Source: Massalongia carnosa (taxonomy: Eukaryota). Taken from it: a stretch of 64,000 nt of DNA. Of the stretch, positions 1 through 25,439 are shown piece by piece. The position numbers and the translations under genes are program-made. Positions within the stretch are counted from its first letter, which is position 1, and every line of letters begins with the position of its first letter. Under the pieces are notes generated by a model. The model saw nothing but the letters and a program-made list of their open reading frames with translations, did no database searches and was not told the origin of the DNA. The stretch spans positions 1,054,001-1,118,000 of the forward strand of contig OZ287084.1 in NCBI GenBank assembly GCA_965645245.1. Direction: 5' to 3'.

Positions 1-913
1 ACCCGCTCGATAGCTTTTTTTAGCTTGTCGGGAGGTAGACGGGCTTCCATGCGTTGGGTGTCTAGCGTTAACCCGAGAAAATCGCAGATGTGTCCCGTCT
101 CTCCCTTTGATGCGTTTATTCGCATGCCCAACTCTTCGCACAACGTGTCGAACGCGGACTCGTAACGAGAAGCTTCCTCGCTGATCTTGACGATTGCGAG
201 GAAGTCGTCTAAATAATGTAGGATTAGTCAGGTTTGAACGATTAACATCCAATTTATTCCCTTGGCAAAGAGATTGAAGATGAATGGAGAGGTACGAAGA
301 CCGAATGAGAGGAAGATGTTCATTCAATACGAATTGTTTCATTGAAAACCTAGTAACCATCAGTCCGTTCTTGCGACGGGAATGTGCCGGAAGGCGTCCG
401 CGAGGTCGCGTTTCACGAGATATGCTCCTCGTTCGACGTTAAGAAGAGCTTCTAATGCTTCATCAAATGATGTGTATTCTAGGGCGCCTCATTCAGCGGG
501 AATGTGATAATTGACCGAGCCTTTGCGTGGATGAGACAAGTGATGAATTCTTCGCCATTTGTCATTGGGCTTGGGGACGAGGCCCAGCGGGGAGGACATA
601 AAGTGAGACGGTGATTCCCCTACGGGTATCACTCGATGCTGTCGAATTTGTTTGTCTAGATCTTTGTATAACACTTCAGGTGCGTCTTTGGCCGAGGATA
701 GTTCGGGCTTAAGATACGCTGTTTTGGTCCTGTGTAGCCAAGTCTTGCCCCGTATCGAATGATGTTAAGAATCGTCTTTTTGTAGACTCTATCTGGATGT
801 TTCTCTAATCGTCATTTCCATCCCGCTGACTTAAGCGGGCACCGTACCTCGTCCGCATCTATCCGGTATGGAAAACCTTCGGAAATAGACGAGAGGGCGC
901 TTGGGACGGATAG
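1..913 (-). pseudogene. Ngaro pol (reverse transcriptase) N-terminal part, disrupted
   Basis: Begins LSVPSALSSISEGFPYR...GWK*RLEKHPDRVY. ORF 489-674 and the YLDD motif lie downstream. Confidence 0.85.
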
Positions 914-2031
914 TCATGAGGTGGGCTTGCTTTGTTGTTGAGGATATGGATTTACACGCGTACGACAATCGCGTTGAGGATGATGACGTCCGCATGACGC
1001 GCACGCGTGACGAAAAGTGCAGTTGGTTGGGCATTCGTCACCGTTATTTTATCGTCTCCACGCTGCTATGCCGCGTTGATCGTCTTGACTTGATATGCGT
1101 TGAACGAGGGAGTTCGTGCTTTGTATTCGACGAAGATTGGAACCCGCGTTGTATTCGATTTTCCGACGAAGGTCTCGTTCTTCTAAACCTCTGTTCGGGG
1201 TCCGCCAACCGCGTGGATCATCTACGCCCTCTACAAGGCGGGCTTTGTGAAAGCCGAAGTGAAATTGACGAATTGATTCGAATGTGTATAGAAGAGACCA
1301 GTCTAGTAATTGATCAATGTAGACGTGCATTGCCACCTGCAGTTCCATTTGTGTGCCCGCGTGAGCGATGTGAATGACGATTGACAGTATAGGAGGAACG
1401 CGCGAAGAAGATGTGTGATTCCTCTTGCGTCCGAGGCCAGAGCATCCTCTTCCTGGTATTCCACCTCGGTTGATCCAATTCTTAAGTATTTGTTTTTGGG
1501 CTGAACTGACTCGTATTCGGTTGACAGCTTCATAATGTTTTCCACCTTGAACTTGTTGTCGCGGTTGTTTTTGAAGTGTTCCGTGTCCACCATTGGGAAT
1601 CTCGCTATCAGAGAATGAAATATAGGGGACGCACCCTCAGCATGAAATGTCGCGAACGTGCTCTGTCTCGCTGATAGTGTTAGAGGATTCGTGGGTTGGG
1701 TGGCTTCTGTGCGGGACGCCGCCGCCTCGTCTCTGAGGCGTTGTATTTCGCGTTCGAATTCCGCCTCCTCTTGTTCAATTTCCCTGCTGTTTGCTTCGGC
1801 TAGTAGTCTTTCGGCTTCCGCTCCGAGGGCCACGCAACAGTCTGGTGGCGGGGTTACATCGGGGGAGGGGTGGCGTGAATCATTTTCAATTGTGGCTTCT
1901 CTGGAGTCTGGTTGGGATGTGACTCGGCCTGTTCGGCTGCGTGCGCCTCTGCCTCGACCACGATTGACGGGCGCGCCGCGAGGAGGATTCGTCTGGCGAT
2001 TTTCTCGCCCGATTTGACTGCGTGTGTTCAT
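914..2031 (-). pseudogene. Ngaro gag-like ORF1 with C-terminal Cys/His finger
   Basis: ORFs 1303-2031 and 1049-1348 are frameshifted. Reading continues past a stop at 1049-1051 into ECPTNCTFRHACASCGRHHPQRDC and ends at TGA 914-916. Similar to 7138-8213. Confidence 0.75.
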
Positions 2032-2604: not shown

Positions 2605-5600
2605 TTAGCGGCGTTTAAAATCTTTTTCTTGTCACGCCAAATAGCCTTAGTACATAACCCGAAGTTGTAGTCTCGCGCAGCGAGAAATTTTTTTATTTTG
2701 AAGCAATTTAAACCGTCAAATAGAGCCTTCAACGAGTAAACCCGTGCCTGAATTGTCTGATTTGATGTGCTGTGAAGTGTGGGATCGCCGTGCAAAACCG
2801 ACGCCCTGCTTGACCCTGATCGTTGCGAAAGTCGACATTTGCGCTTCGCAATCGAACCACAAAGGGATTTTGTTAGAATTTTGAAACTGGGTTTGCTGAA
2901 AGAGCTTCTTCTGAATAGAAGAAGCATGTTATCCCGAGTAGAATTAGCGTAGCGCTGATGGCGCGATACGTGATGCAGTTGCACGCCTCGTCACAAGATG
3001 TCCCACCAAGTCACAGAAACGAGGAGGTACTACGGGCACATTACGAGTGATCGCTTCTTAGTAGAAACGGTGTTACAAGCCTCCATGACTAGTACTCGTA
3101 GAGAGAAAGAGAGGTATCAATGACCTATCCACGAAGCAGATCCACCTCAGCGTCAATACGCTTAGAGATCTGATGTCCAGAGAGCCCCAAACTGTCAACT
3201 TCCCGCGCAATATCCCACGGATCCCTTCCCTGCTCATTCGCCTTCCCCTGAAGATACCGACGGATCCGTCTTTTGACGTAGAACCGCTGCCTCAGGACAG
3301 GAGTGTACCTCCACTTAGCCCCGAAGAGGCGGTCCAACTAGTCGAGAGACGTACGCCGGACCCCCTTCACCAACGTCCCCACCGCGAATTCCTTCAACAC
3401 CGCCTCCGCCGAGGTCACGCCGCCGAGAATGGGCTCCGCCGGGCAGTCAGGAGGACGTTGAGGCGGCCCCTCTTGGGGGAGGGAGCCACAGGGCGCAGAG
3501 ACCGTAGACGCCTCTCCGGGGACCGAAGTGAGGACGACAGAAGGTGTAGGAAGGAGAGAAGCGACTGCGTCGACGTACGAGGACGCCGACGCAGCAGGCT
3601 CTTCACCAACGGAGTGCGCCGCCGTCGCAAGAGCAGTCGCCTGCCCTCGCCAAGAAGCCTCGTCCAGCAGCCAGTCCCTCCGAACAGCCTCCACAGGAAC
3701 CGTCAGAAAGGATCGAGGTAGCGTCGAGACCGTGGCCTGCAACTGTGAGAGCTGCGAACCCAGGACTCGAGCTATCTCCTGGGCATTTGTCGCCGGCAGC
3801 GCACTCAAGATGGTCGTCAGCTGGCTCTGCCCGGAGAGCAACCTCTTCACAGCGTTGAGCGTGCGATCTTGCTTGATCGCAACATCGCTGACCTTGTTAC
3901 TGACGCCATCAACGGAGTCAGCAACAAGAGGCAGCACGCCGTGGATGGCCACGTGTAAAGGTTTCTTTTCTACGGCCTCCAACGCCCGTATCTTCGCCGC
4001 GAACGCAGGCCAAAGGGGATCTCTGAAGACTTGGTGTCTTCAGAGCGAAAGCTCAGGAAACTGAGGCTGTAGAAGCGCCGCGTTTTGCAGGAAGACACAA
4101 CGCAGCCGCAGCAACATCTTCAGAACCTTCTTCCCTGTCTTATCCGCATCAGGAAAAAGACTGCCTTTGTACGCCGCCAGAGCGTCATCCATCCAAGGCC
4201 ACACCTGCCGCTGCAGGGCCAGATCCGGTGAGTGTCCTCCTCTTCTTAAAAAGTAACTCCCGGGGGAGTTGCCAAAGCCGGCGGCGCGACGCATGTAGAC
4301 ACGCGGCAGGCGGGTGAGGTAGTTAGTGGCCCAGACGCCACGTTCACATCCGCCTGCTCTCATGATCTGTAGTAGTTGATATAAGGATAATGCTAGTAAG
4401 TATAAGGGGCCATGAATCGTAGAGTACTTGCCTTGGTCCGCGGGGATTTTTCACATGTCGGCCGGCCGTGACGAGGACTGCCGCATGATATGAATCGTCT
4501 TGAAGCTGTCGACGCCGACAGCATTCAAAGCCGGCTTAACTCATCGAGCCTGTGTTTTGTCGAAGATCTCCTTCTTAGATCGCGCTAGGCTCCCGAAGAT
4601 GACCTTCGTGAAATACCACGAAGATCGATTTCGGAAGTCTGACCGCTTCTTCAGAAGGAGGTCCCAGCGCAAGACGAGTCAATGAGCGAGGGCGTCGAGA
4701 GGACAGAGGACGACATCTCTGCTCCGCAAAGCATCATGATAATGCTGACGACGCGAGTTGCCCCCGTTCGTCAGAGGAATGCTCTTGCCCTGACCAATTC
4801 GAAGAATCAACGCAAGGCATTCGAACTCCTCGTTAGAAAGATCGTAGGCGCAGAGGTCAGATAGCTCAGCCCTTCGCGTTGACTTCCCCCGCAGCATCAT
4901 CGAATGCATTAGAAGGAAGTCGAGGCGAGTCCGCAGAAGATGCCACTCGCCGTCCGCCACGCCCTTCTCCCCCAAAATCTTGCCCCCCGGCGAGCAGCAT
5001 TGCTGAAAATTGAGCGGCCTGCTCAGTCGTGTAGCCGTCGGTGAGGCCGTGAATCGCGCGATCCTCGAACGAGGCCCGCTTTGAAAGCGCTTCAATCGAT
5101 GCGTAAGCGCGTCATCAGGGCTTTGATGACTTTCCCTCTGAGATGAGTCATCATCAAATTCTCTTCGAGATGCTGATCATCGAAGAGGACGCAGAGGGCA
5201 GAGACGTAGCCCGATTCCACGCTATCGGGCGCCAGGGGTCGGGATAAAGGATCGTCGGCTTGCTGCAAGACGAGTCAGTAAGCTACAAAAAAAAAATTCT
5301 ATTTCTGAATTCGAGTTCAGGGAGCGACTCACCGTCTCAACGAGCTCCTCGCCGTCGGAGAATTCCTCGAATTTTTCCACCTCCTCCACCTCCTCTTCTT
5401 CTATCGCTGGCAAGGCTTTCACCGGCTCCATCGCCTTCCCCTTCCCCCTCTTCAACGCGCGACGCTTAGCCTGTTGTTGGCGATTCTGATCCCACCGCCT
5501 GGCCTGCGCTGCTGCGCCTGTGAGCTTGAAACGTGGGACGAAGCGCAGGCGGAGGACGACCTCTTCGAGGAAGAGGAGCATCTTCCGCTCCCACAAAGAA

Positions 5601-6405
5601 CGCCGTCAGAAAAATTGCGACATCGGCACCACTTCTGTAGGATGTTAGCGTAGGCCCAAATTTGCAGGAAATATCTATCGTAGTCACCTCTTATAAATAT
5701 CAGCACTTGCGGTACGTCTTAAGGGTGTTGGCCCTCCGATCCTTCTCCCGCATCCCGCGGACGCGCCTCATGGTGGCTGCCATGGCGGCCTCGTTGTTGC
5801 CGTGGGTGGCATAGGCCTGAGACTCACGCTTGACGGCGTCGACATCAACGTAAACCTCAGGAGGAGGCCAAGAAAGAGGCGCCGCCGTCTCCGGATCTGC
5901 GACGGCGGGGCCTGCAGCGGAGGGGCCCGGGTCCATCGTGCGGCTGCCAAAGATGGTATTCGTGGTATGTAGAACGCTCGTTGATCAGCAAGTCGCTCGC
6001 GGCGCAAAACGGGGACAGTCAGGCTTTTTGCAGTTCGACTGAATGGGTCGAGGAGGGAAAATCGTGGTATGGAGCTTGGTCACGGGCGATATTGTCCATA
6101 CAGCGTGACGATTTTGCAGGGTAACGCCTACATCACCCCTCCACAGCCGAACACCAAAACTCGCTTGACAGGCGATTTTTACTAAAGATTTTTCCAATAT
6201 CTTGCTTTGGAAAATTTTCTTAAATAACCACGCTTCAGTATAAAATATCATAAGGTTAAAACCGAATGTCAATCAAGCTGCACTTACAAAATTACAAGTT
6301 TGAACAGCTTGTAAAATAATCTGATGTTTTTATCAGACTTGCAAACATAGTAAAGTTTGGTGTTCGGGCCCATTTTGTCACGCGCGTGCCCCACTAGTGT
6401 TTAGC
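2605..6405 (-). mobile_element. Crypton (tyrosine-recombinase DNA transposon, fungal CryptonF-like), decayed; ends tentative
   Basis: NDC10-II-like recombinase plus GCR1_C-like C-terminus. No TIRs. Candidate TTAGC direct repeats at 2605-2609 and 6401-6405. Confidence 0.65.
3125..5936 (-). pseudogene. Crypton tyrosine recombinase (NDC10 domain II-like) with GCR1_C-like DNA-binding domain
   Basis: Motifs LRTRLDFLLMHSMMLRG, ELSDL, CPLDALAH, TIHIMR (HxxR), NYLTRLPR, QVWPWMD, FLQNAALL and DRLFGAKWR. Spliceosomal introns at about 5635-5687 (GT..GCTAAC..CAG) and 5263-5332 (GTGAGT..CTGAC..CAG). Stops and frameshifts present. Confidence 0.8.
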
Positions 6406-7137
6406 TGCATGACATTAGTAATCAGAACATCAATATTTTAATATTCCCCTATTCAACTTCACTCCCATTTCAATCGATGATAGATCTTCAAAGTCACTGA
6501 TTCAAGGTCTTATTGACACTCCGCTGGAGCTTTTTCAGTTTTTCATTACGCCTCAGCATTGTCGTACTATCGCATGTCATACTAATATCAAGGCATACGA
6601 TCATATGAAAAAAGAGAAAGAAAATAATCCTCGCGCATGGCATGACACGACTGAACCAGAAATAGAGGTGTTTTTGAGCCTTCTTCTATGCATGAGTATG
6701 AATCAGACGCCTGCTACAGAGGATTATTGGAATAGATGCTCCGATAAGCCCATTTTCATATCTATTCAACAGGCTTTGTCCCTTAGACGATTCCAACAAA
6801 TCAAAAGATTTTTGAAACTCAATAATAGGCGTACGAAGGCTTCCGGCATGAGCAAAGGAGCTGCTTGATGAAAGAAATTAGAACCGCTTGCTACCGGTTT
6901 TCGTGAGGCCTCGTTGGAGTACTATGAACCAGGAGACATCATATCAATTGACGAACAATTAATTAAATTCAAAGGTCGATCACGTCATACTTTACAAATA
7001 ACCTCATCATCTCGGATTCGGAGGTAGCACTGCATAGTAGTTTTTGAGTCCAATCCAACAATCCATCCTTCTTCCCTTCTTCATCTTCGATAAACACGTA
7101 TAAACCTAGCTCCACTCTCCTCCCTTCCATAAACAGA

Positions 7138-8213
7138 ATGCCTACTACCCGCCGCATTGCGTCCACCGCCGACGATAGCGGCCCCACTGGCCCCATCACC
7201 CCCCTTGTGCCTGACTCTCAGCCGACCTCCGCAACAATGCAGGCCGGCCAGCCAGCGGAAGAAGGGCCTACACGCCCCGGTACCCCTGATGAGCTACTTG
7301 AACTTCGCGTACAACGCAACATTTTGGTATGAGAGGGGCGCCAGGCCGAAATGAGAAAGCTTAGGAAGGAAATTGTCGACAGACAGGCCGCGTTGGAGGT
7401 GGAGGAGGCCCCTACGGGATTTCAGCATGGGGGATCCCAACAGACAAATCAGGCCTTTCAGAGCGAAGGTACGGATGACCCAAGAATCCTCCCTCTGACA
7501 AGTGACTTTCCGGCCATAAACCAGCTGTATTTCAAGCAAATTTTGGAAAATAAGTTTGACCCCATCAATATCGCCAAGATGTGCAGCGACGTTACTCTGA
7601 GCAAGTCTGCGAAGGAATCTATCAATATTAGCAAAGGTCTGGAGGTCATTACTGGCGAGGATGACGCATCGTTGAGCGACATCAAGGGTATCACCCGCCT
7701 AATTCGTTGTCTTTTGGTATACTGGCAAGCGGTATTGCACTTTGCACAACCAAGTCTGTTCAAAGATCTAGCAAGGGCCTTCATGAAATACGAGGACCGG
7801 CTGATTTTGCTTCACAATACCTACACATGGGAGTCGTTGCTGCAAGTTCATATGCTATTTCATAGAACGCTGTGGTATCAAGGAGTGGACGACCCCGTAA
7901 AATGGAGGCAAAGCTACCCAGACTTGGAAAACACATAACTGGTTAAACGCGACAGGCCCCTCAACAACCTTCAAACCCGGACCGGATTTAGGGGATACAC
8001 AACCAATTCAAACAGCAATACTCCAAGGCCCTACCCTTGCCATCGGTATAACACAGGCAAGGACTGCCGAGACTGCAGATACCAACACGTCTGCAGCAAC
8101 TGCGGGAGACAGCACCCAGCACTTAGTTGCAAGGGCAACACCCCAATAATAGCAACCCAAGTAGCCAATCTCGTAACAATCCAAATTGGACACCGGTCAA
8201 TAGGAAGAATTGA
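7138..8213 (+). pseudogene. Ngaro gag-like ORF1
   Basis: ORFs 7138-7332 and 7351-7938 are in one frame with premature stops, followed by CHRYNTGKDCRDCRYQHVCSNCGRQHPALSC. Confidence 0.8.
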
Positions 8214-9812
8214 CTAGCCGGCCCATATGACCATATCGCGGAAGGTTTTCCGTACAGACTGATGGACAAACTCGAGGCTCTTCAGCAAGGACCACTCATC
8301 CTCGCCGGCTGGAAGAAGCACCTAGAAACTCATCCCGATAACGTGTACAAGCAGGCTATTTTTGATATTATTCGGTATGGGGCCAAGATTGGGTATACCG
8401 GCCCAGAACAATTCATCCTCAGCCCCAATCTGCTATCAGCAAAAGAAGCTCCTGATATACTCACTAAAGATGTCGAGGAGCAGAGGGATAAGGGACGATT
8501 GACGCGAGTAGATATTCTTCCCTCCAAGTTCATATCATCCCCATTAGGTCTCGTACCCAAATCAAATGGTACATGGCGCCGTATCCATCATTTATCTCAT
8601 CCTGAAGGATCGTCGGTAAATGACTTCATCCCTCAGGAATGGGGGGCCTTGGAATACCCCACATTCGATGACGCTGTCGCCAAAGTAAGAAAACAAGGAA
8701 AAGTGTGCATATTAGTAAAAAGGGATTTCTCCGATGCCTTTCGCCATATACCCGTGGCTAAAAGCGACTGGTGGTTGCTGGGATTTCAATGGGATAATGT
8801 TTACTGGATGGAGCGCTTTCTACCTTTCGGCTTGCGCACGTCTCCTTTTCTATTCGATTTGTTTGCAAAGGGGATAAATTGGATGTGTTTACAAAATGAG
8901 CTTCATTATCTAGATGATTTCATGGCAGTTTGCCGCACTAATCCCGAAGCGGAAGCTTTCACTGGGTACTTCTTCGATCTTTGCAAAGACCTTGGAATCG
9001 CAGTCAACGAAAAGAAAAATATAACTGGTCATGTAATCGATTTCTTAGGCATTGGATTGGATACAATGCTCATGAAAGCATGGCTACCACCAGAAAAACT
9101 GCAGAAAGCCAAAGACCTCGTCAAACAGGCCTTGCAAAAATCATCGATTAGAAGGGAGGAATTAGACTCCTTGGTGGGATTTTTGTCATTCGCAGCTAAA
9201 GTGGTAGTGCCAGGGAGAGCTTTCCTCCGACGTCCTTTTAACGCAAAAGCCATATCTCGTGGGCGTCATATTCATATTAACGAGAATATCAAAGCCGACC
9301 TGCAGTGGTGGCATCTTTTTTTACCTAAATGGAATGGCATTCGCATGTTAGACCGTCCTCGCGAGACATTTCGTCTTTGGACGGACGCATCAGGGTACGG
9401 CATTGGGGCCTACATCCTAGTGGAGGATCATACCAGTTTTACCATGCCCGCTGAGCATGCACTTTCTGAACGTTTCACGTCTCGGCTTAGGCCAACTCAC
9501 ATCAATGTCAAAGAAATGACAGCGATATTACACGCTTTGCGTAAATGGCCCCCCCTTTGTGCAGGGAGCCATGTGATTTTCCACTGTGACAACTTTGCTG
9601 TCACGTCAGGAATAAGGAAATCATCTATTCGTGGAAACGCTATGCGGCCTCTTCGGGCAATCGCAATGCTGACCGCTATTCATGATATTCGGATTGAAAT
9701 ACGTTGGATCCCAACAAAGTCAAATGAGCTCGCTGACCTCCTATCGCGGGGCAAATTGGAGAAAATCGCTAACAAATGGCCCAATTTACAGGAACTTCTA
9801 CTCAAATCCTAG
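8214..9812 (+). CDS. Ngaro pol: reverse transcriptase and RNase H
   Basis: Open from 8214 (first ATG at 8262). Motifs LPFGLRTSP, HYLDDF, WTDASG, INVKEM, HCDN and NELADLLSR. Confidence 0.92.
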   Translation, partial: LAGPYDHIAEGFPYRLMDKLEALQQGPLILAGWKKHLETHPDNVYKQAIFDIIRYGAKIGYTGPEQFILSPNLLSAKEAPDILTKDVEEQRDKGRLTRVDILPSKFISSPLGLVPKSNGTWRRIHHLSHPEGSSVNDFIPQEWGALEYPTFDDAVAKVRKQGKVCILVKRDFSDAFRHIPVAKSDWWLLGFQWDNVYWMERFLPFGLRTSPFLFDLFAKGINWMCLQNELHYLDDFMAVCRTNPEAEAFTGYFFDLCKDLGIAVNEKKNITGHVIDFLGIGLDTMLMKAWLPPEKLQKAKDLVKQALQKSSIRREELDSLVGFLSFAAKVVVPGRAFLRRPFNAKAISRGRHIHINENIKADLQWWHLFLPKWNGIRMLDRPRETFRLWTDASGYGIGAYILVEDHTSFTMPAEHALSERFTSRLRPTHINVKEMTAILHALRKWPPLCAGSHVIFHCDNFAVTSGIRKSSIRGNAMRPLRAIAMLTAIHDIRIEIRWIPTKSNELADLLSRGKLEKIANKWPNLQELLLKS

Positions 9813-10806
9813 CACGCGACCCTCCCGAAAGCTGGTATAGCGAAATACCTCTATCCCGACCAGCAGCTAGATACCTGTGGTGGGGCTTGGCAGTTAAAAC
9901 CCGCAGTCTGTATGACACAGGGAGAAGAAGCTATGTAACACACTGCAGAATATCAATGAACGCGACTCCATTTCCAGCAACCATACAGACCTTGTCATCT
10001 TGGATAGCGATGCTAGGAGAACAAAAATACAGCCCAAAACCATCAAGGCCTATCTAGCCGGAGTTCGGTCCAGCCAAATCGACACGGGCTTTGAGGATCT
10101 AGAAACGTTTCACCATCCCGTACTAAATAGAATCATTGCCAGCATAAAGCGAAAGAATGGCGAAGCCGACAAGAAAGAGCGAATGCCCATTACGAAAAAC
10201 ATACTCGTTCGTTTAGTGAAACGATTGGACTTAGCCGACAACGCGCAGGCCACTCTACACGCAGCATACTGTCTGGCATTCGCAGGATTTCTTCGCGCAG
10301 GCGAATTTACGTACACTATCAGAGACCTAACAGACCCAAGCTTCGAATCATGGCATTTAACTAGGAAATCCGTCCACTTAGAAGCAGATAAGCAGTTCCT
10401 CTCCTTCCCGGCGTCCAAAACCGACACCTTTCGTCGAGGCATTACGCTAACGATAGCCGCATTAGGGGACGAGGCCTGCGCGGTAAAATCCCTTCGTAAT
10501 TTGATCACCCGGTTTCCACTACCTGCAACCTCCCCTTTATTCTATAAACAAAAGGCTTTCACACGCGAATATTTGACCACCGCGATGCGATCAGGGCTTA
10601 AGAGCTTAGGCATAACAGGTAATTATTCAGGTCACTCTTTCCGAAGAGGTGCAGCGACGACGGCCAAGGAAGCCGGTCTTAGCGAGAACGACATTCAATT
10701 ACTAGGCCGGTGGAAGTCAGACTCCTACAAGCTTTATATCCAAACGCATCAATCCCACATCTTAGCCACCTCACGCCGTTTTCAACACCCTCCCCCAGCC
10801 TCCTAA
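9776..10806 (+). pseudogene. Ngaro tyrosine recombinase (one frameshift near 10021)
   Basis: ORFs 9776-10057 and 10000-10806. Catalytic motifs GFLRAGE, SKTD, HSFRRG and GRWKSDSYKLY. Overlaps the end of pol. Confidence 0.9.
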
Positions 10807-11028
10807 ACAGCATCGCCGCGCGAGCCGTTTCCATCTTAGGCTTGGGAGTATCCACCGCGATCTGCACCAAGGCCCGAAAGGGGGCGCTAGGTAGAGGCGC
10901 CGGCGAGAGTGACGGCGCCAGCGAGGTGCAGATCGCTGTGTTTCCGCCAACCTTAGAAATAGAAGCAATACGAGGTCACATGAAATAGCCAGTTCATCTA
11001 TGGTGAGAGCTAGTGCGGGACCGATGCT

Positions 11029-11091
11029 ATTCGGCTACCAGCGGATTCGGCTACCAACGGATTCGGCTACCAGCGGATCGACTACCAGCGG
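11029..11091 (+). repeat. 16-bp tandem repeat ATTCGGCTACCARCGG, about 4 copies
   Basis: Read directly in the Ngaro 3' non-coding region. Confidence 0.9.
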
Positions 11092-11255
11092 TTCTCCACG
11101 CATGACGGGGACAACAGGTGATGCAAAATCCGGACCTCTTCGGTTTTGCACGGTTATCCGCCAGGAGCTGATTCGGATAACGACCGGGGATTGAATATGG
11201 ATGACAGGGGGGAGATGGAGGCTATACAGAGGGCCAAAGCAGTCCTACATCTCTA

Positions 11256-11403: not shown

Positions 11404-11896
11404 TATAAAATCTCCTCATAATCTCGGATTCGGAGGTAGCACTGCATAGTAGTTTTTCAAAGTAGGCTGATAAAGGATTTAAAGTTTATACTCTTTGTCA
11501 GAGTAATTATTTGATATCAATTTTGTTCGCCTTCAAAGTGAGTTGATTGATTCTTTATTCTGACTTTGGAAAATGATACGCGAAACCGCTTGTTTTTGCC
11601 GCAAAATCACGCTGTTTTCCATTTCTTTTCTCGTAATAGGCTAGAATAACTAGAAAGAAGCAGGTCACGAAAATCAGTCAATTAAAAATAGCTAGACAAT
11701 TGAGATTTTTAGCAAAAGATAGTCTTTCAGATAGTGTTTTGTTGGTAATTCAGCTTTGTAAAACACTTCCCGAACCACTGAATTATACTCTCTTCTGCGA
11801 CAATTTCTTTACCAGCACGAAGCTATTCAAAGCTCTTCGATTACTAGGAATTGCTGCATGCGGGATAGCCAAAAAAGGCCTTGGAATTCCTGCGGA

Positions 11897-12491
11897 TTAT
11901 TATTAATTCATTTATTTTTTATTAATTCATTAAGCGTATGCATCCTAAGGATATGACGCTGTGACTGCTATTTATGTACATAAACAATAGTCAGGAAGTG
12001 GAAACCTGGCGCCCAGGGTCAAACCACTCCCTTGTTCCATGTTGAACGCAACGAGACCGTCCTTCTACCACGCGGTGCATACACCCAGATCTTCAAGCGC
12101 TAGGAATCCTATAGACTCGATGAACTAGACAGTGTATTTCCACACGTTCGACGAACGTTCTCTCTCTTTAAACGTTTTGATTCAATGGAGAAAAGACTGG
12201 CCGTGATCGAGGGCAGATCGTGGTGTCGTATAAATGAAGGTGTGTAAGTGTGGCCATTCTAAATGAATGGGCTTTTTCGATGAGGTGAAAGGCTTCCGCC
12301 TGAGGGGTGTGGCCATTCCGAATGAATGGGCTTTGTATGTGTGCCTTCGAGGTGACGAATGATCAGTAGAGACGTTGATCGTTCAAATGGCCACCGAGGT
12401 GGACTTCCGCGTTGGCGATGATCAGATATTGGCCACCTCCGAGGAGGTGTTGATAGCCTGCACCACGTAGAGGTTTCTGACCCAGCAGGCC
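11897..12491 (-). mobile_element. SINE-like non-autonomous non-LTR element (595 bp)
   Basis: 13-bp TSD GAATTCCYGCGGA (11884-11896 and 12492-12504), A-rich tail, 3' end similar to the LINE family, no credible ORF. Confidence 0.9.
12420..12491 (-). ncRNA. HDV-like self-cleaving ribozyme (predicted) at the SINE 5' end
   Basis: P1 GGCCUGC/GCAGGCU, P2 GGUCAGA/UCUGAUC, P3 ACC/GGU with L3 UCUACGU, P4 CACCUC/GAGGUG, J4/2 GCCAA. Confidence 0.85.
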
Positions 12492-13204: not shown

Positions 13205-13240
13205 TAGACATAGACACCGAAGGAGGCCTCCCCTATAGCG

Positions 13241-14482
13241 ATGGCACGATCCACAGGAACCGGGATTGAACTCCCAACTCGACGAGAATCGATGATCCCG
13301 ACGACCCAGGAGACAGATGACGAATTGGAGGTAACGGAACCTCTGATGATCGAGAACTTTCGACAACTGAAGGCATGGATGAAGCACGACGGCCAGGCTG
13401 TGTCCGACATGCTTCAGGAACTGAAGAAAGCCTATAACGACTCCATCGACCGAAGCAATCTCGCCACCGACATGGCCGAAAGCTTCCAGAAAAGAATGAA
13501 CCAGCTAGAAGGAATTGTCGAATACCAAAAGGAAGAACTGAGGGAAGCACGTCGCCAGGCTTCCGAAACACCAACCGACAAAACACGAGAGCAGTCTCGC
13601 CCTCATTCTCCTTCTCGGACACCAAGCACTCAACGGACCGACGGCACCAATGACAAGAAGAAGTCCATGAAGCTCCCTGATCCTCCCATTCTTACTGATG
13701 GAAAAGAGATTTCCATTGACCATTGGCTGACGAAGATGCGGAGTAAATTAGCGGCCAACGAGGACCATATGCCTACGGAAGTGCTGAAGAAGGCGTACGT
13801 AGAGAACCGAGTCGGAGGAGAAGCCATGGGGCACCTCGAACCCCGACTCCGAAAAGGTGCAATTCGCCCCTTTGTGACGGCCGAAGAAATGTTCGACCAA
13901 TTGGAACGCACCTACGGCGACCCCAACCGAAAACAAAACGCCATGAACAGCTTCCGAGCCCTCAAGCAAGGAAGCAAAGACTTTAACACCTTTTGGGCTG
14001 AGTTCCAGCGCCTAGCAGCTGAGTTAGAGCATAACGAGGCCACGCTAATCAGCGAGTTGAAGTACAAGCTTTCCTGGGAAATGTCACGACAATTGGCCAC
14101 CGGCGACCAGGCACCAACCGACCTCTATGCGTTTGCGCAAAAGTGCCAACGCTTATACCAGGACCTCAAGGACTCGGACCGGAGTAAGGCTAGTATGGAA
14201 CGTTATGCTGAAAGACGTTCTAGCACGGCTCCGACCCCCAGCGCCATGGCCACGAGAACGACGACTTCCACCAAGACCTACGTACCACCTCGACCCTTCA
14301 CCAGCACTCCGACCACTAGAACCACCTCTTACATGACGGAGGAGGAGAAGGAACGACTGACTAGAGAAGGTCGTTGTTTCTTTTGCAAAGAAACTGGACA
14401 TATATCGAGGGACTGCGAGAAGAAGACTCGGCCAGCGAAAGTGCAAGAAATCGCTGAGGTTGCCGACTCGGGAAAAGAATGA
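13241..14482 (+). CDS. Gag (retrotransposon capsid and CCHC zinc knuckle)
   Basis: 413-aa ORF with KLPDPP, LKQG and CFFCKETGHISRDC. Confidence 0.95.
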   Translation: MARSTGTGIELPTRRESMIPTTQETDDELEVTEPLMIENFRQLKAWMKHDGQAVSDMLQELKKAYNDSIDRSNLATDMAESFQKRMNQLEGIVEYQKEELREARRQASETPTDKTREQSRPHSPSRTPSTQRTDGTNDKKKSMKLPDPPILTDGKEISIDHWLTKMRSKLAANEDHMPTEVLKKAYVENRVGGEAMGHLEPRLRKGAIRPFVTAEEMFDQLERTYGDPNRKQNAMNSFRALKQGSKDFNTFWAEFQRLAAELEHNEATLISELKYKLSWEMSRQLATGDQAPTDLYAFAQKCQRLYQDLKDSDRSKASMERYAERRSSTAPTPSAMATRTTTSTKTYVPPRPFTSTPTTRTTSYMTEEEKERLTREGRCFFCKETGHISRDCEKKTRPAKVQEIAEVADSGKE

Positions 14483-17400
14483 CCTCCACCGAAGGCGCGG
14501 ATGGAGGTGAACCTTTGTTGATTTCATCTAGCTGTTTACCAGGCGATTTGTTTACGGATGAACCTCTAATCATACAGTGTAGGCTAGGTAACAGCGAAGA
14601 AATGAAAGTAATGGGACTGTTGGACACTGGTGCTACAGGACATGCTTTTATTGATGAAGTAACAGCGCGTGAAGTTTGTGAAAAGCTTCAAATCTCCCCT
14701 CAGAGACTGACACGACCGAAACCGGTGAAAGATTTTGATGGTAAACGGGGTAAAGACATCACCCATGCCATCTACCCCACCCTGACCGTACAAGACCACA
14801 AAGAGACGGTGGCGCCTCTTCTGATCACCACACTAGGCCAACATAAGATGATCCTGGGCAAACCATGGACGAGGAAACATGGAGTAGTTATCGACATGGC
14901 CCTGGACAAGATAATCTTCTGGCCCGGCCACTGTTCCCATCCAGGCGCACCCAAACCACTCCAGAAGCAAGAAACGACGAAGACCCCGAAGACTACAGAA
15001 CCCAGAAAGGTTATGAAGATATTGACACGGACCCAAGAAGAAAAGACAGAACAGAAAGAACCCGAAAAGACCAAACCAGAACAGTCTATGCAGTCGAATG
15101 TGGTAGCTGACAAGGCTGTTGTTAGACTAACAGAAAGACTAACAGACTTTCCATCTACCGAAACTGTAGATGGACATTCAACCGAAGATAAGCCGATAGA
15201 GATGGCCATGATAGGGGCTGCTGCGTATCGACTGCTCTCCAGACGAAAGGACGTCGAATTATTCTCCATTTCCTTGAAAGACATCGAGTATCAGCTCAAC
15301 AAAGAAGACCGCCCACCGACTGACCCGAAGACGGTAGTTCCCCCGGAATATCACGAGTTTTTGGACGTCTTTTCTGTTGAACAAAAAATCAACCAGGCAT
15401 ACGGCAGCGGGATGCAGGAGAAGAGGGTCTAGGGCTATCAAGGATAGGCAAAGAGAAGTGCTTGGCAAACGTGATGCAGGTACTCCGTATTTCCAGTGAA
15501 GATACTCCAAATTTAGCTATCTGCTGCACTGAATTCTGAACGACTGAATAGCTAAATTACATGAGGAATCATCGTCTCTTTATACTGCTTGAGGGCCTCC
15601 ATCTCGGCCTATATCAAATGCATGAACCTGCTTCCTTTGAACCTTTTCAGCTGGGCAAAATACACCTCGTTGCTGACCGGAGACACCGAGACACTCAGTG
15701 ATCATGAACAGCTGAATTGCCTCCGAAATGTAGCATTCTTGCTGCATACTTTTGCCTCCTCGTAGTTGCCGAAGTCGTGCCGATATCTGAAGCTTTTCGC
15801 ATATAGCATATGATTGCCTAAACTGGAAATTAGTAAGCAGGAGGCAAAAGAACCTCGGTCGCAAATATTCAGGTATCTCGGCAAATTCCAATATTTTCCA
15901 AGGCCGCATCGGACACGCTGGCACCTCACCGACCCTATGACCATCGTATTATTCTGGAAGGAGGAAAAGATCACGGGCATAGCCCACTTAGGAGTATGTC
16001 GCAAAGAGAGCTCGAATTCGTCAAGAAATACCTCGAGGACAACCTTCGAAAGGGGTTTATCGAGGCCAGTCACGCTGCTTGCTCGTCCCCGATTCTTCTA
16101 GCCAGAAGCCTAATGGAGGACTTCGCTTTTGTGTCGATTATCGACGGTTGAACCAGTTGTCAAAGAAAGACCGCTATCCAATTCCCCTGATAGGAGAAAC
16201 GCTGGCCCAGCTGAAAGAGGCCAAGATCTTTTCGAAAATCGATATCCGACAAGCGTTTCACAAACTCCGAATGGCTATGGAATCTGAAGATTTGACCACG
16301 TTTAACTCCCGTTTCGGTGCTTATAAATACAAGCTATTACCGTTTGGACTTTCCGGAGGACCATCGACCTGGCAGCACTTTATCAATGACGTGTTGTTTG
16401 AATATCTGGACAAGTTCTGCACGGCTTACCTAGACGACATCTTAATTTATAGCAAGAATCTGAAAGAACATCGGGAGCATGTACGGGCCGTTCTATCAAG
16501 ACTTCGAGAAGCAGGACTCCAAGCGGACGTGGACAAATGCGAGTTCCACGTGACGGAAACGAAATATCTGAGACTGATTATCGGTGTTGATGGCATTCGT
16601 ATGGACCCCGCCAAAGTCAAGGCCATTCAGGAATGGGAAATTCCGACCTGCCTACGGGAGGTTCGTTCGTTCATTGGTTTTTGCAATTTCTATCGCCGGT
16701 TCATCAGAGGATTTTCCAAGATCGCCAAACCGCTGAATGCGTTGACAAAGAAAGAACGAATATTCGAATGGACCCCCGCATGTGAAAAATCTTTTCGAAC
16801 TCTACAGAAACGAATTGGAGAAGCCCCAATCCTGATACATTTCGATCGGAACAAACAATGCTATCTGGAAACGGACTCATCAGATCATGTCAATGGCGGC
16901 GTGCTCTCCCAGATCGGTGACGACGGAGAGTTACACCCGGTGGCTTTCTTTTCGAAAATCATGAGCCCGGCCGAGTGTAATTACGAAATATACGACAAGG
17001 AACTGCTAGCGATAATTCGCTGCTTCGAGCAATGGAAACCCGAACTGGAAAGTACGGACTTGCCAGTGAAGATCTTCACCGATCACCGAAGTCTAGAATA
17101 TTTCATGTCAACTAAGAAACTAACTAGACGACAAGCTCGCTGGGCGGAGTTCCTCTCGGAGTTCAATTTTGTCATTACATATCGACCCGGAAAGAAGAAT
17201 GAGAAAGCGGACGCCCTGACTCGAAGACCAAATGACAAACCCCAGGACGATGATGACGAAAGGCAGCAACACCAGCTGCAGACACTGTTACCCCCTGAAA
17301 GATTTGAACTTCAACCAATCGAAGAAGCAACGGAACCGGAAGCAACGGAATCAGAAGAAACCCCCGACCAGGACCCACCGACCCTGGACGAACGAATAAA

Positions 17401-18869
17401 ACAGGAAAACCTGGAAGATGAACTTTGCACCAGAATCAGGAAAGCCATAGAAAGAACCGACACCACCGACGACTCGTTACCCGACATAAAGAATTGCATC
17501 GTGGAAAACGGACTGTTATATAAGCAAAAGCGCTTATGGGTCCCGAACAAGAAAGAAACGATCCTAGAAGTCGTTCGGATAATACACGACCAAATAGCAG
17601 TAGGACACCCCGGAATCGCCAGGACTAGTCAGATACTCCGTAGTCTCCCGAAATTACTATTGGCCAAACATGAACAAGGACATCCATCGCTATGTACGAA
17701 ACTGTCATGTTTGCCGGCGCGCAGAAGCACCTCGGGACAAGTACAATGGACTACTGAAGCCACTGCCCATCCCAGAGAGACCATGGAAGGATATCACCCT
17801 CGACTATGTGACCGGACTCCCGAAAAGCAAAGGAAATGACGCTATCCTGATGGTAGTGGACCGGATGTCAAAGGAAAGACATTATATCCCGTGCACATGC
17901 AGCGAGGAAGGCACAATAGCAGAGGCCACAGCGAAACTCCTTATCGACAATGTATGGCGCTATCATGGACTCCCGAACAGCATGCTATCCGATCGAGGAC
18001 CGCAGTTCGTCTCAGCAGTATGGAAGGCCTGGTGCAAAATTCTCGGAATTACAGCAAAACTGTCAACAGCCTATCACCCAGAAACAGACGGACAAAGCGA
18101 AATCGCGAATCAGGAAATGGAGCGTCACCTCCGGAGTTTTGTGAACTACAGCCAGGATGACTGGACGGACCTGCTTCCAATGGCCGAGTTCGCTGCCAAC
18201 AACGCACCCTCAGCCACTACAGGGCTTTCACCGTTCATGGCCACCAAAGGGTATGAGCCAAGAATGAGCTTCGATCCGACCGAGCTTTCCGCAGACTCCA
18301 CTAAGGAAAGACTAGCCAACGAAAAAGCCAGAGCCATTACTGACGACATGAAAAAGGTATGGGACTTTGTTCAACAAAACATGAAGAAATCCCAAGAACG
18401 ACAAGCAATAGCGGCAGACCGGCATCGAACTGAATTCTCGTACAGCGAAGGAGACATGGTGTGGTTATCCACAAAGAACATCAAGACGGAGCGTACCGCC
18501 AAAAAGCTGGATCACAAAATGATTGGTCCCTACAGAGTCAAGAAACTAGTAGGATCTTCCTGCCAATTGGAACTCCCACCGTCAATGAAAATCCATGATG
18601 TCTTCGACACCAGCCTACTTCGGAAGGCCTCCGACGACCCACTTCCAGGCCAGATTAACGAACCACCACCGCCAGTAGTGGTTGAAGGGAACGAGGAATG
18701 GGAACTAGATGACATCCTGGATGCACGAAGACGCTACCGAAATATTCAATTCAAGGTCAAATGGAAGGGAATAGACGAAGATTTGACATTGTATGATGTA
18801 GAAGGCTTCGAAAATGTAAATGAGATAGTGGAAGAATTTTACAAACGAAACCGAAGAAGCCAACGATGA
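14479..18869 (+). pseudogene. Pol (protease, RT, RNase H, integrase, chromodomain), disrupted
   Basis: Motifs LLDTGA, YLDDILI, ETDSSD, H-H-C-C, SDRGPQF, TDGQSE, GPY and KVKWKG. Broken by a solo LTR (15375-15893) and frameshifts near 16105 and 17636. Confidence 0.95.
15375..15893. mobile_element. Solo LTR (519 bp) inserted in gypsy pol
   Basis: TGTTG...CAATA with TSD TTTTC (15370-15374 and 15894-15898). Removing it restores EFLDVFSKAASDTLAPHR. Confidence 0.85.
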
Positions 18870-20733: not shown

Positions 20734-21363
20734 TGTCAGGGGAGGGCTGCAGAGATACAAGACTCTATCTTGCAGAATAGATATCTAGATATGCTAAAAC
20801 TAGAAATTGAGAATAATACACAAGACATCCGATGAAGAGCACTAAATACCTGGGAAACCATATAGACTTTATAGCCATGGCTTTCAACTCTCCTATTCTC
20901 GACTTGCGCCATCTCTGTTCCTATACTAATTTCCTTTACATGATTGCTTTGACCTATCCCGTTTTTATCTGTGCTGAAGTTCTCTCAGTAATAAGCCTAG
21001 ATAGTGGAGACGTTGAGATTGGATACGGATTGTAGGAGATTAATAGTGCGTTGAGGGTAGCAGAAGAACGCCTGAGCACGATGGGTGAGGTTTCACAGAA
21101 ATGGTCCCTGTTAAATACTAACCCGATCAGGACAAGCTGGAGGGTGCTGTAACGGTTCGACCAAGCGTGGTGCGGACGGCAGGACCTACAGCGAACACAA
21201 CAGGAGTCCCAGTTATCCCTCTCGCTGGTGAATTGGCAACTCCCTCCCGCACTAGCTGTTAGTCGCATAGTATTAGTAAGCAAGAACACCAAAATTTGTT
21301 TACTTTCTACCTCAAAACAATCACCATTATTATCATTAGGAAAATAAATCTCCTTACCATCAA

Positions 21364-24140: not shown

Positions 24141-25439
24141 TTTAAAGAAGTAGATAGAGTTCAGGTAGATAGTAATTGATTGGGCAATTCTTAAAAAAGG
24201 TCAGAAAGGGGTAGCAAGCCGCTTATTTGATTGGTTGATATTTAAGGTTTCGAGAGCTCTAAACCATCTATAGCTAGTGCGGGAGGGGGTGCCAATTTAC
24301 CAGCGAGAGGGATAGTAGAATAGAGCTTAGTCTACTAAGTATTGTGCCTTTGGGTCGGGAAGGACAGGTGGCGCAATGGTAGAAATCTATTCACTATCTC
24401 GCTTCGTCACAGAATACTAAGTCTTCAATCGGTGTACTAGTCGTGAGTTGGATTCCTGACCTGAGTTCCTCGCTTTTTCGCATTGCTTCGACGGACTGAA
24501 GCAGGGACGAAACAGGAAAGCGTTGGATGAAAACTCTCTAAGTCGGATCGGCGAAGGCCGTATGCTAAGAAGAGCGCATTCTTCGGGGCTAACTATAACT
24601 AGAAGCGGCTACGGGCTAGCCGCAGCTAGACGGGTGGTAGTGTAACGGTTCGACTAAAACGTGGTGCGGACGGCAGGACCTACAGCGAATATAGCAGGAG
24701 TCCCAGTTATAGTAGAATAGAGCTTGGTCTGCGGGCTAAGTATTGTGCCTTTTGGTCGAGAAGGACAGGTGGCGCAATGGGTAGAAATCTATTCACTATC
24801 TCGCTTCGTCACAGGTGCGAAGAGATTCCGTGACAGAATTTTTTTTAATATATTTATTAAGTGTATTCAACCTAAGGTTATGATACTAAACTATTTTAGG
24901 ATATGTTTCTATAATACAAATAAATCAACCCTTTATAACCAATCTATGAATTGTCAATTTTGCCCCGTTTTTACTCCGTGTTAGTAACAACCAATAGTAA
25001 TCGAATTTTCGATTTTACAATTTGTCTTTGTAAAGTTCGTAAATGTTTTAGCATAAATCAATTCTGATTTTACTGTTCGATCTCTCCCCAACCTCCCGTT
25101 TCGACAATTTCGTCTTCTAGCTGACCTAGTATCCATTTTCTAGTAGCGATTTTTGTTTTGACAATAAAATTTATCAATATGTCATTTCCAATTTTGGTAT
25201 TGAATAACATGTTTAAATTGATTGTAGTATCGACATTTTGTTTTATTATTTGAATTTCTTCAAAATAGTGAATGCAGTTCAACAATAGATGTTCTGGCGT
25301 TTGACGTTCGTTGCATAGATTCGTGCATTTTGACGAATTATAATCTTTCAATCGATGTAGATATGATCGAAAATAACCGTGTCCGGATTTCAGCTGCATA
25401 ATGGTAGCAAAGATCAATTTCGAACAATTGTTTGACAAT

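Follow-up and report, generated by a model that had tools for sequence, protein, structure and literature searches.

Predicted stop-codon readthrough from gag into pol in fungal Ngaro-type retrotransposons

Ngaro elements belong to the order DIRS, and those of fungi fall into groups 1-4 (PMC3783388; here and below, papers are cited from excerpts). They encode a gag, a reverse transcriptase with RNase H (RT/RNase H), and a tyrosine recombinase, and their split direct repeats have the layout A1 ... B1 A2 B2 (PMC9210276). The excerpts of PMC3783388, PMC6681497, PMC9210276, and PMC3266345 do not mention a stop codon or read-through and are silent on how pol is expressed. Those of PMC8547959 and PMC7192593 contain no statement of gag-pol readthrough, and in the excerpt of PMC12440569, read-through refers to transcription. 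In the main texts of the open-access literature, we found no description of gag-pol readthrough in tyrosine-recombinase retrotransposons.

Viral readthrough motifs are classified into types I-III, and type II sites often need a structure 3' of the stop codon (PMC3159437). The first-pass annotation of the DNA that we analyzed had noted TGA CTA between gag and pol in two divergent copies of an element, had described UGA-CUA as a known leaky context, and had proposed that Pol is made as a Gag-Pol readthrough fusion. The context is indeed known to be leaky: in Ustilago maydis, readthrough requires no more than UGA CU (PMC4207609). The junction contexts that we describe below match all three types of viral motif.

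We analyzed a stretch of 64,000 nucleotides (the window) from contig OZ287084.1 of Massalongia carnosa. The host genome comprises 52 Mb in 25 contigs and appears to be that of a filamentous fungus. The window contains two copies, both decayed, of Ngaro-type tyrosine-recombinase retrotransposons, which we assigned by their layout and domains:

7002..11253, + strand: copy 2, an element of family A, decayed and truncated at both ends
7138..8213, + strand: gag of copy 2, which ends with a Cys/His zinc finger followed by a short tail
8211..8216, + strand: gag stop of copy 2 (TGA, 8211-8213) with its leaky context (CTA, 8214-8216, followed by G)
8214..9812, + strand: pol of copy 2, with RT (RVT_1, 6e-14) and RNase H (RT_RNaseH, 1.5e-10)
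9792..10806, + strand: tyrosine recombinase coding region of copy 2, with a shift near 10022 and the motifs HSFRRGAA and GRW..Y
10844..11253, + strand: B1 repeat (10844-10989) and partial A2 repeat (10981-11253) of copy 2
914..2031, - strand: gag of copy 1 (family B), decayed, with a shift near 1390 and a stop at 1051
911..916, - strand: gag stop of copy 1 with its leaky context, TGA CTA (followed by T)
1..913, - strand: decayed 5' part of the copy 1 pol, which extends beyond the window edge

The RVT_1 and RT_RNaseH domains score above the cut-off in copy 2 and in locus L086, and pol terminates just past RNase H. Three matches to Phage_integrase (1.5e-4 in copy 2, 5.9e-4, and 7.3e-3) are all under Pfam's cut-off, and the recombinase has the motifs H-x-[FL]-R-x-G and GRW. 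The gag, pol, and recombinase frames have no Pfam match to a methyltransferase (unlike DIRS), a protease, or a DDE integrase. The gag frame of copy 2 has no Pfam match either; its position and zinc finger suggest that it is gag. Split direct repeats in the order A1 ... B1 A2 B2 are found at L096 (A, 326 nt; B, 146 nt) and at L086 (A, about 366 nt; B, 153 nt). They are absent from the 8-kb stretches L090, L091, L095, L101, and L102, and copy 2 retains only parts of them.

As the first-pass annotation stated, copy 2 reads AAT TGA CTA GCC at 8208-8219, its pol frame (532 codons) starts right behind the TGA, and the peptide EGFPYR precedes the first in-frame ATG of pol (8262, which is codon 17). 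On the minus strand, copy 1 reads TCA TGA CTA TCC, with TGA CTA at 916-911. The zinc-finger end of its gag, the stop codon, and LSVPSALSSISEGFPYR share one frame that has no Met, again as described. Neither copy is intact, and both contain other stops and shifts. In copy 1, whose pol is 87% identical to L101, these include 1051 and 814, plus many more. Copy 2 is 97.5% identical to L096 (4291 columns), which has an open gag of 358 codons; the gag of copy 2 has premature stops at 7330 and 7936 and a one-base shift near 8140. This shift had been put down to decay, and 10 of the 14 callable copies of family A are in frame, which agrees. (The other four, the window copy among them, are shifted by +1 or +2.) In contigs from two public runs, X1 and X2, an additional base at 8140 is present at full depth. 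We had considered a programmed frameshift at 8140, and we dropped it as private decay of copy 2, given the sister copies and the X1 and X2 contigs.

Copy 2 seems to be inserted into a DDE_Tnp_1_7 (piggyBac-like) transposase, pieces of which border it at 6422-6868 and 11640-11906 (both + strand). It starts about 280 nt into the A repeat (7002-7047) and breaks off at the corresponding point of A2 (10981-11253), and a 48-nt piece of the A repeat is found again at 11410-11457. Its ends and this piece may reflect either circular permutation or a nested rearrangement. The window also contains other mobile elements. Broken frames at 4040-5984 (- strand) match NDC10_II, and we take them to be, possibly, a Crypton-like tyrosine-recombinase element. 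A Gypsy-like LTR retrotransposon lies at 13214-17839 (+ strand), with gag, a zinc knuckle, protease, RT, and RNase H. Its protease frame overlaps the end of gag in the -1 frame, and GGGAAAA near 14469-14475 is a possible frameshift site. Finally, 21148-21216 and 24312-24814 resemble L086:1261-1437 and 6379-6750, which flank an element of family D; these pieces are another repeat.

To see how well the junction is conserved, we consider five families of these elements in the host genome, where copies within a family are not independent observations. For families A (which includes copy 2), B (which includes copy 1), and C, we examined 55 loci, of which 54 cover the junction. TGA CTA is present in 53 of the 54 copies; the exception is L005, from family A, which has TCA CTA and is itself frameshifted. 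In 42 of the 54 copies, both sides could be called and gag shares the frame of pol; 7 copies have one side shifted, and 5 have a side that could not be called. Family D has 48 near-identical copies, and 40 of them have an open pol of 538 codons (counted by hand); its gag frame is open for 414 codons, and all 48 of its 48 pattern matches have TGA CTA. In family E, which is 43% identical, the junction reads TAG G instead (71 of 71 matches), so two types of readthrough signal coexist in the host genome.

Families A-D keep this junction although they have diverged widely. Their pol proteins are 52-67% identical (33-48% of residues differ), and the third positions of four-fold codons agree at a rate of 0.21-0.34, which means that silent sites are saturated. 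CTA accounts for 18% of the leucine codons, and at none of the 18 shared leucine columns do all four families use the same codon. Nevertheless, all four share TGA CTA NCC GNC YCA, which implies that the constraint at this junction acts on nucleotides. The hexamer TGA CTA is frequent in the window (26 + 31 occurrences). However, across representative loci, CTA is next to TGA in just 35 of 2,225 TGA triplets, so its presence at the junctions is not due to chance. We also dropped the idea of a reassigned genetic code: intact pol frames use TGG 15-16 times and have no internal TGA.

We then looked for related elements in other DNA. A scan of metagenomes gave 78 loci (from the best 80 of 167 confirmed stretches), a scan of genome contigs gave two, and a search of viral contigs found no relative. 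The two loci from genome contigs are L184, which is without the upstream end of gag, and L185, which has a match of just 19 residues and was left out of all counts. (L184 is a 3150-base contig that carries this pol and that was binned in a bacterial MAG; it is probably fungal DNA within that MAG.) Grouping at 75% identity, with the five host families included, gave 40 groups. After dropping L175, L176, and L184, which lack the gag end, 37 groups remained (5 from the host and 32 from metagenomes), with one representative each. The end of gag was called by a script for 30 groups and by eye for 7. The metagenome elements are probably of fungal origin, judging by their likeness to the host elements and to a protein from Fusarium solani.

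Gag and pol share a frame in 33 of the 37 groups. The first-pass annotation depended on a shared frame, and this is what we found, both across groups and (in 42 of 54 copies) within families A-C. In the four exceptions (L135, L138, L161, and L166), the loss of frame is likely to be decay, which is shown for L138 only. The position of the junction stop, past the zinc finger, is the same in nearly all groups. There are 22 TGA, 14 TAG, and just 1 TAA. Among the TGA junctions, 18 are TGA C, including 14 with TGA CT and 10 with TGA CTA; one of the others with C is TGA CGG (L126). Among the TAG junctions, 5 are TAG CAA (for example, L160 has TAG CAA TTA) and 9 are TAG G. Two junctions do not look leaky: L107 (TGA AAT) and L137 (TGA TAT).

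As controls, we used 47 ordinary stops from the same elements (28 from pol and 19 from the recombinase). TGA CTA is found at 10 of 22 junction TGAs and at 0 of 12 control TGAs (and neither do any of the controls have TGA CT). Similarly, TAG CAA is found at 5 of 14 junction TAGs and at 0 of 24 control TAGs, while TAA accounts for 1 of 37 junctions and 11 of 47 control stops. The P values range from 2e-4 to 1e-2 (Fisher exact tests), but these are overstated, as the groups are related and were treated as independent. So, the expected enrichment of TGA CTA across families does hold. The idea that TGA CTA is the junction context needs to be broadened, though: it is enriched, but it is one of several contexts, along with TAG CAA, TAG G, and TGA CGG. 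On an RT tree of these elements only, in which several forks are unresolved, TGA CT requires 4 changes (the mean for shuffled labels is 12), TAG CAA requires 5, and TAG G requires 6. TGA CT is largely inherited and may be a single ancestral state, while the other types are scattered.

Given the shared frame, the leaky contexts, and the lack of another start, Pol is very probably made as a Gag-Pol readthrough fusion, as the first-pass annotation had predicted. Four other explanations need to be weighed. First, Pol might be made alone, through re-initiation past the end of gag or from a promoter inside the element, with an AUG or a near-cognate start. There is a precedent for a promoter at the junction, in the retrotransposon Tca2 (PMC2194720), and some families have an early Met in pol: at codon 17 in A, codon 38 in C, and codon 16 in E. 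One subclade seems to carry a Met just ahead of EGFPY, and 9 of the 37 database homologues among the matches listed open with MP[AST]SL right before EGFPY. In gene models, an initial M can also stand for a GTG or TTG start; in L138, the Met is real. But the positions of these Mets are scattered. The first Met of pol is at codon 110 in family B and at codon 199, inside the RT, in family D, and an early Met is absent in 18 of the 33 in-frame groups (and present in 15). A separate start also leaves the shared frame, the avoidance of TAA, and the enrichment of leaky contexts unaccounted for. We give this explanation little chance.

Second, pol might be reached by splicing that joins a donor in gag to an acceptor where pol begins, so that the stop is skipped. 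These elements do have conserved splice signals, which we describe for the recombinase. In copy 2, they are:

7469..7474, + strand: predicted phase-1 splice donor in gag, AAG/GTACGG
9769..9791, + strand: end of pol, with a predicted branch point, CTAAC, at 9769-9773 and a predicted acceptor, CAG, at 9789-9791

The recombinase frame is -1 relative to pol and overlaps the end of pol. When we scanned the end of pol for a branch point followed by YAG, we found them at a single offset in 26 of 28 groups (versus 24 of 561 background windows). A phase-1 donor lies 220-260 codons upstream of the gag stop in 23 of the 28 groups with a long gag (a hand count, with no formal null). Joining donor and acceptor gives an open Gag-recombinase frame of 448 codons in family A, 498 in D, and 485 in E. 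Because the donor is conserved, an acceptor lies at the end of pol, and the joined frame is open, the recombinase is probably expressed by splicing from upstream of the stop, in which case it would not need readthrough. The branch point and acceptor are embedded in Ala-Asn/Asp and Gln codons of the final residues of pol (L086, L090, L096, L106-L184). In contigs of four public runs, whose kind is not recorded, there was no joint at either the gag-pol junction or the predicted intron, which says nothing for or against splicing.

The same signals are not conserved near the junction. A branch point with YAG is found there in 8 of 37 groups, at scattered positions, and acceptors that are compatible with the phase of the gag donor are found in 9 of 33 groups, with none in families A, B, D, or E; compare this to the single offset in 26 of 28 groups for the recombinase. 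The CTAG within TGA CTA G is in phase with the gag donor in family A, most of C, and five metagenome groups, and TGACTAAC in family D resembles a branch point. However, the AG is missing in B, D, and many others, and no branch point precedes the CTAG. The TAG junctions are out of phase, and splicing would not require gag and pol to be in frame. The chance that Pol is made by splicing seems smaller still. Overall, neither a conserved ATG nor a splice acceptor, which the first-pass annotation had named as alternatives, accounts for pol.

Third, A-to-I editing during the sexual stage of the fungus might turn the stop into UGG, at least where it is UAG, as in family E. In filamentous ascomycetes, such editing corrects UAG stop codons, with a preference for U at -1 and for A or G at +1 and +3 (PMC11156358), and G is the next base at 9 of 14 TAG junctions. 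But the junctions in the window are TGA, whose A is preceded by G rather than U. Editing also leaves the CTA and CAA contexts unexplained, and the stop of family E is at the base of a stem rather than in a loop. The chance of this explanation is slim indeed. Fourth, the notion that the stop arose by decay (for example, from CGA or TGG) within a single gag-pol frame is refuted: copy 1 does have several TGA stops where its sisters have Trp or Arg, and L005 has TCA, but the junction stop is present in 48 of 48 matches of D and 71 of 71 of E, both with long open gag and pol, lies at the same place behind the zinc finger in nearly all groups, and L005 is itself frameshifted.

The stem in family E is one of a few predicted structures. 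In the 140 nt 3' of the stop, families A-D have no predicted structure (z from -1.40 to +1.35), and a search for long-range duplexes in these families found none. In family E (L090:3070-3165), a stem extends from about +3 to +80; three copies have z of -4.35, -2.97, and -2.40. L132, L178, and L140, which are all TAG G, also have long stems, and in E, L132, and L178, the 3' arm of the stem is a stretch that encodes Pro-Ala-Pro. The remaining groups with G after the stop do not have such a long stem. Structure behind these stops is only a trend overall (P = 0.08) and is clear in four groups. (The folding methods that we used do not predict pseudoknots.) In family A, we considered a stem in which CTAGCC pairs with Gly-Trp codons, and we rejected it for lack of significance and because D does not conserve it.

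Stop-codon readthrough is, with high probability, the best explanation for gag and pol being in frame across a stop, and on present sequence evidence, we propose the following scheme. A single transcript would supply all three proteins. On the unspliced RNA, most ribosomes would terminate at the end of gag, and a minority would insert an amino acid at the UGA, in its leaky UGA CUA context, and continue into pol; Trp, Cys, or Arg would be expected at this position. The output would be much Gag and a little Gag-RT-RNase H fusion, which probably stays fused, because no protease is encoded. In relatives, UAG CAA, UAG G with a downstream stem, or UGA CGG would serve the same role. The recombinase would be made apart from these, by removing an intron of 2.3-2.4 kb with its donor in the first third of gag and its acceptor at the end of pol. 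More broadly, it is rather likely that a wide clade of fungal Ngaro elements uses one transcript with readthrough (for Gag-Pol) and splicing (to join the N-terminus of Gag to the recombinase), with repeated switches among UGA CUA, UAG CAA, and UAG G plus a stem, and with two types side by side in one genome; readthrough may be general for Ngaro.

In the excerpts cited, surveys are silent on how tyrosine-recombinase retrotransposons make Pol and the recombinase, whose ORFs often have no usable start. Our scheme is concrete, with exact sites, and concerns a genome in which two families are young and high in copy number. It also offers dozens of natural readthrough contexts under one selective demand, which should help to learn which signals work in filamentous fungi. 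And it accounts for mis-modelling of such loci by gene callers. A search for long fused proteins gave three hits. One (P0001) is a fused gag-pol model with Trp at the junction, where the TGA was perhaps read under another code. In another (P0003, from Fusarium solani), the second half of the zinc finger is missing, as would happen if the gene model included an intron to bypass the stop.

As for host genes, neither of the two controls, PGK and GAPDH (whose end was obscured by an intron), shows TGA CTA use. PGK (L186) ends in TAA GCT and has short GT-AG introns. Its stop lies within AAGTAAGCTAAC, which resembles a splice donor, and alternative splicing there could give an extended isoform. In other fungi, an extended PGK isoform is made by alternative splicing.

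Overall, we have a known type of element and a known mechanism in a combination that is, apparently, undescribed. The elements have the same gag, RT/RNase H, tyrosine recombinase, and split repeats as Ngaro (PMC3783388). In the Ngaro elements of Xenopus, the ORFs overlap (PMC9210276), unlike the gag-stop-pol arrangement here. The excerpt of PMC3783388 places Ngaro almost only in Basidiomycota, while the clade described here has a relative in Fusarium solani. Among readthrough systems, type II sites with UGA-CUA are found in alphavirus replicases and in peroxisomal isoforms of fungi and animals (PMC3159437, PMC4207609), and families A-D have the identical stop and +3 context, extended to UGA CUA G in family A and most copies of C. 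The differences are that here the site lies at the gag-pol junction of a retrotransposon and that in A-D no stem lies within 140 nt on the 3' side. Among retroelements, Tca2, an LTR retrotransposon of Candida albicans, also has gag and pol in frame across one UGA; it belongs to another order, and in S. cerevisiae its junction, which contained a weak promoter, did not by itself give readthrough (PMC2194720). Compared to the gammaretrovirus MuLV, whose gag-UAG-pol is of type III, the elements here have no protease and no LTRs, and they have a recombinase in place of an integrase. MuLV has a tested pseudoknot that begins after 8 nt, while family E has a predicted long stem about 3-6 nt past the stop. 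What they share with MuLV is gag, stop, and pol in frame, which would give an excess of Gag here too; and, like type III sites, family E and its relatives have UAG G with a purine-rich start and a structure on the 3' side.
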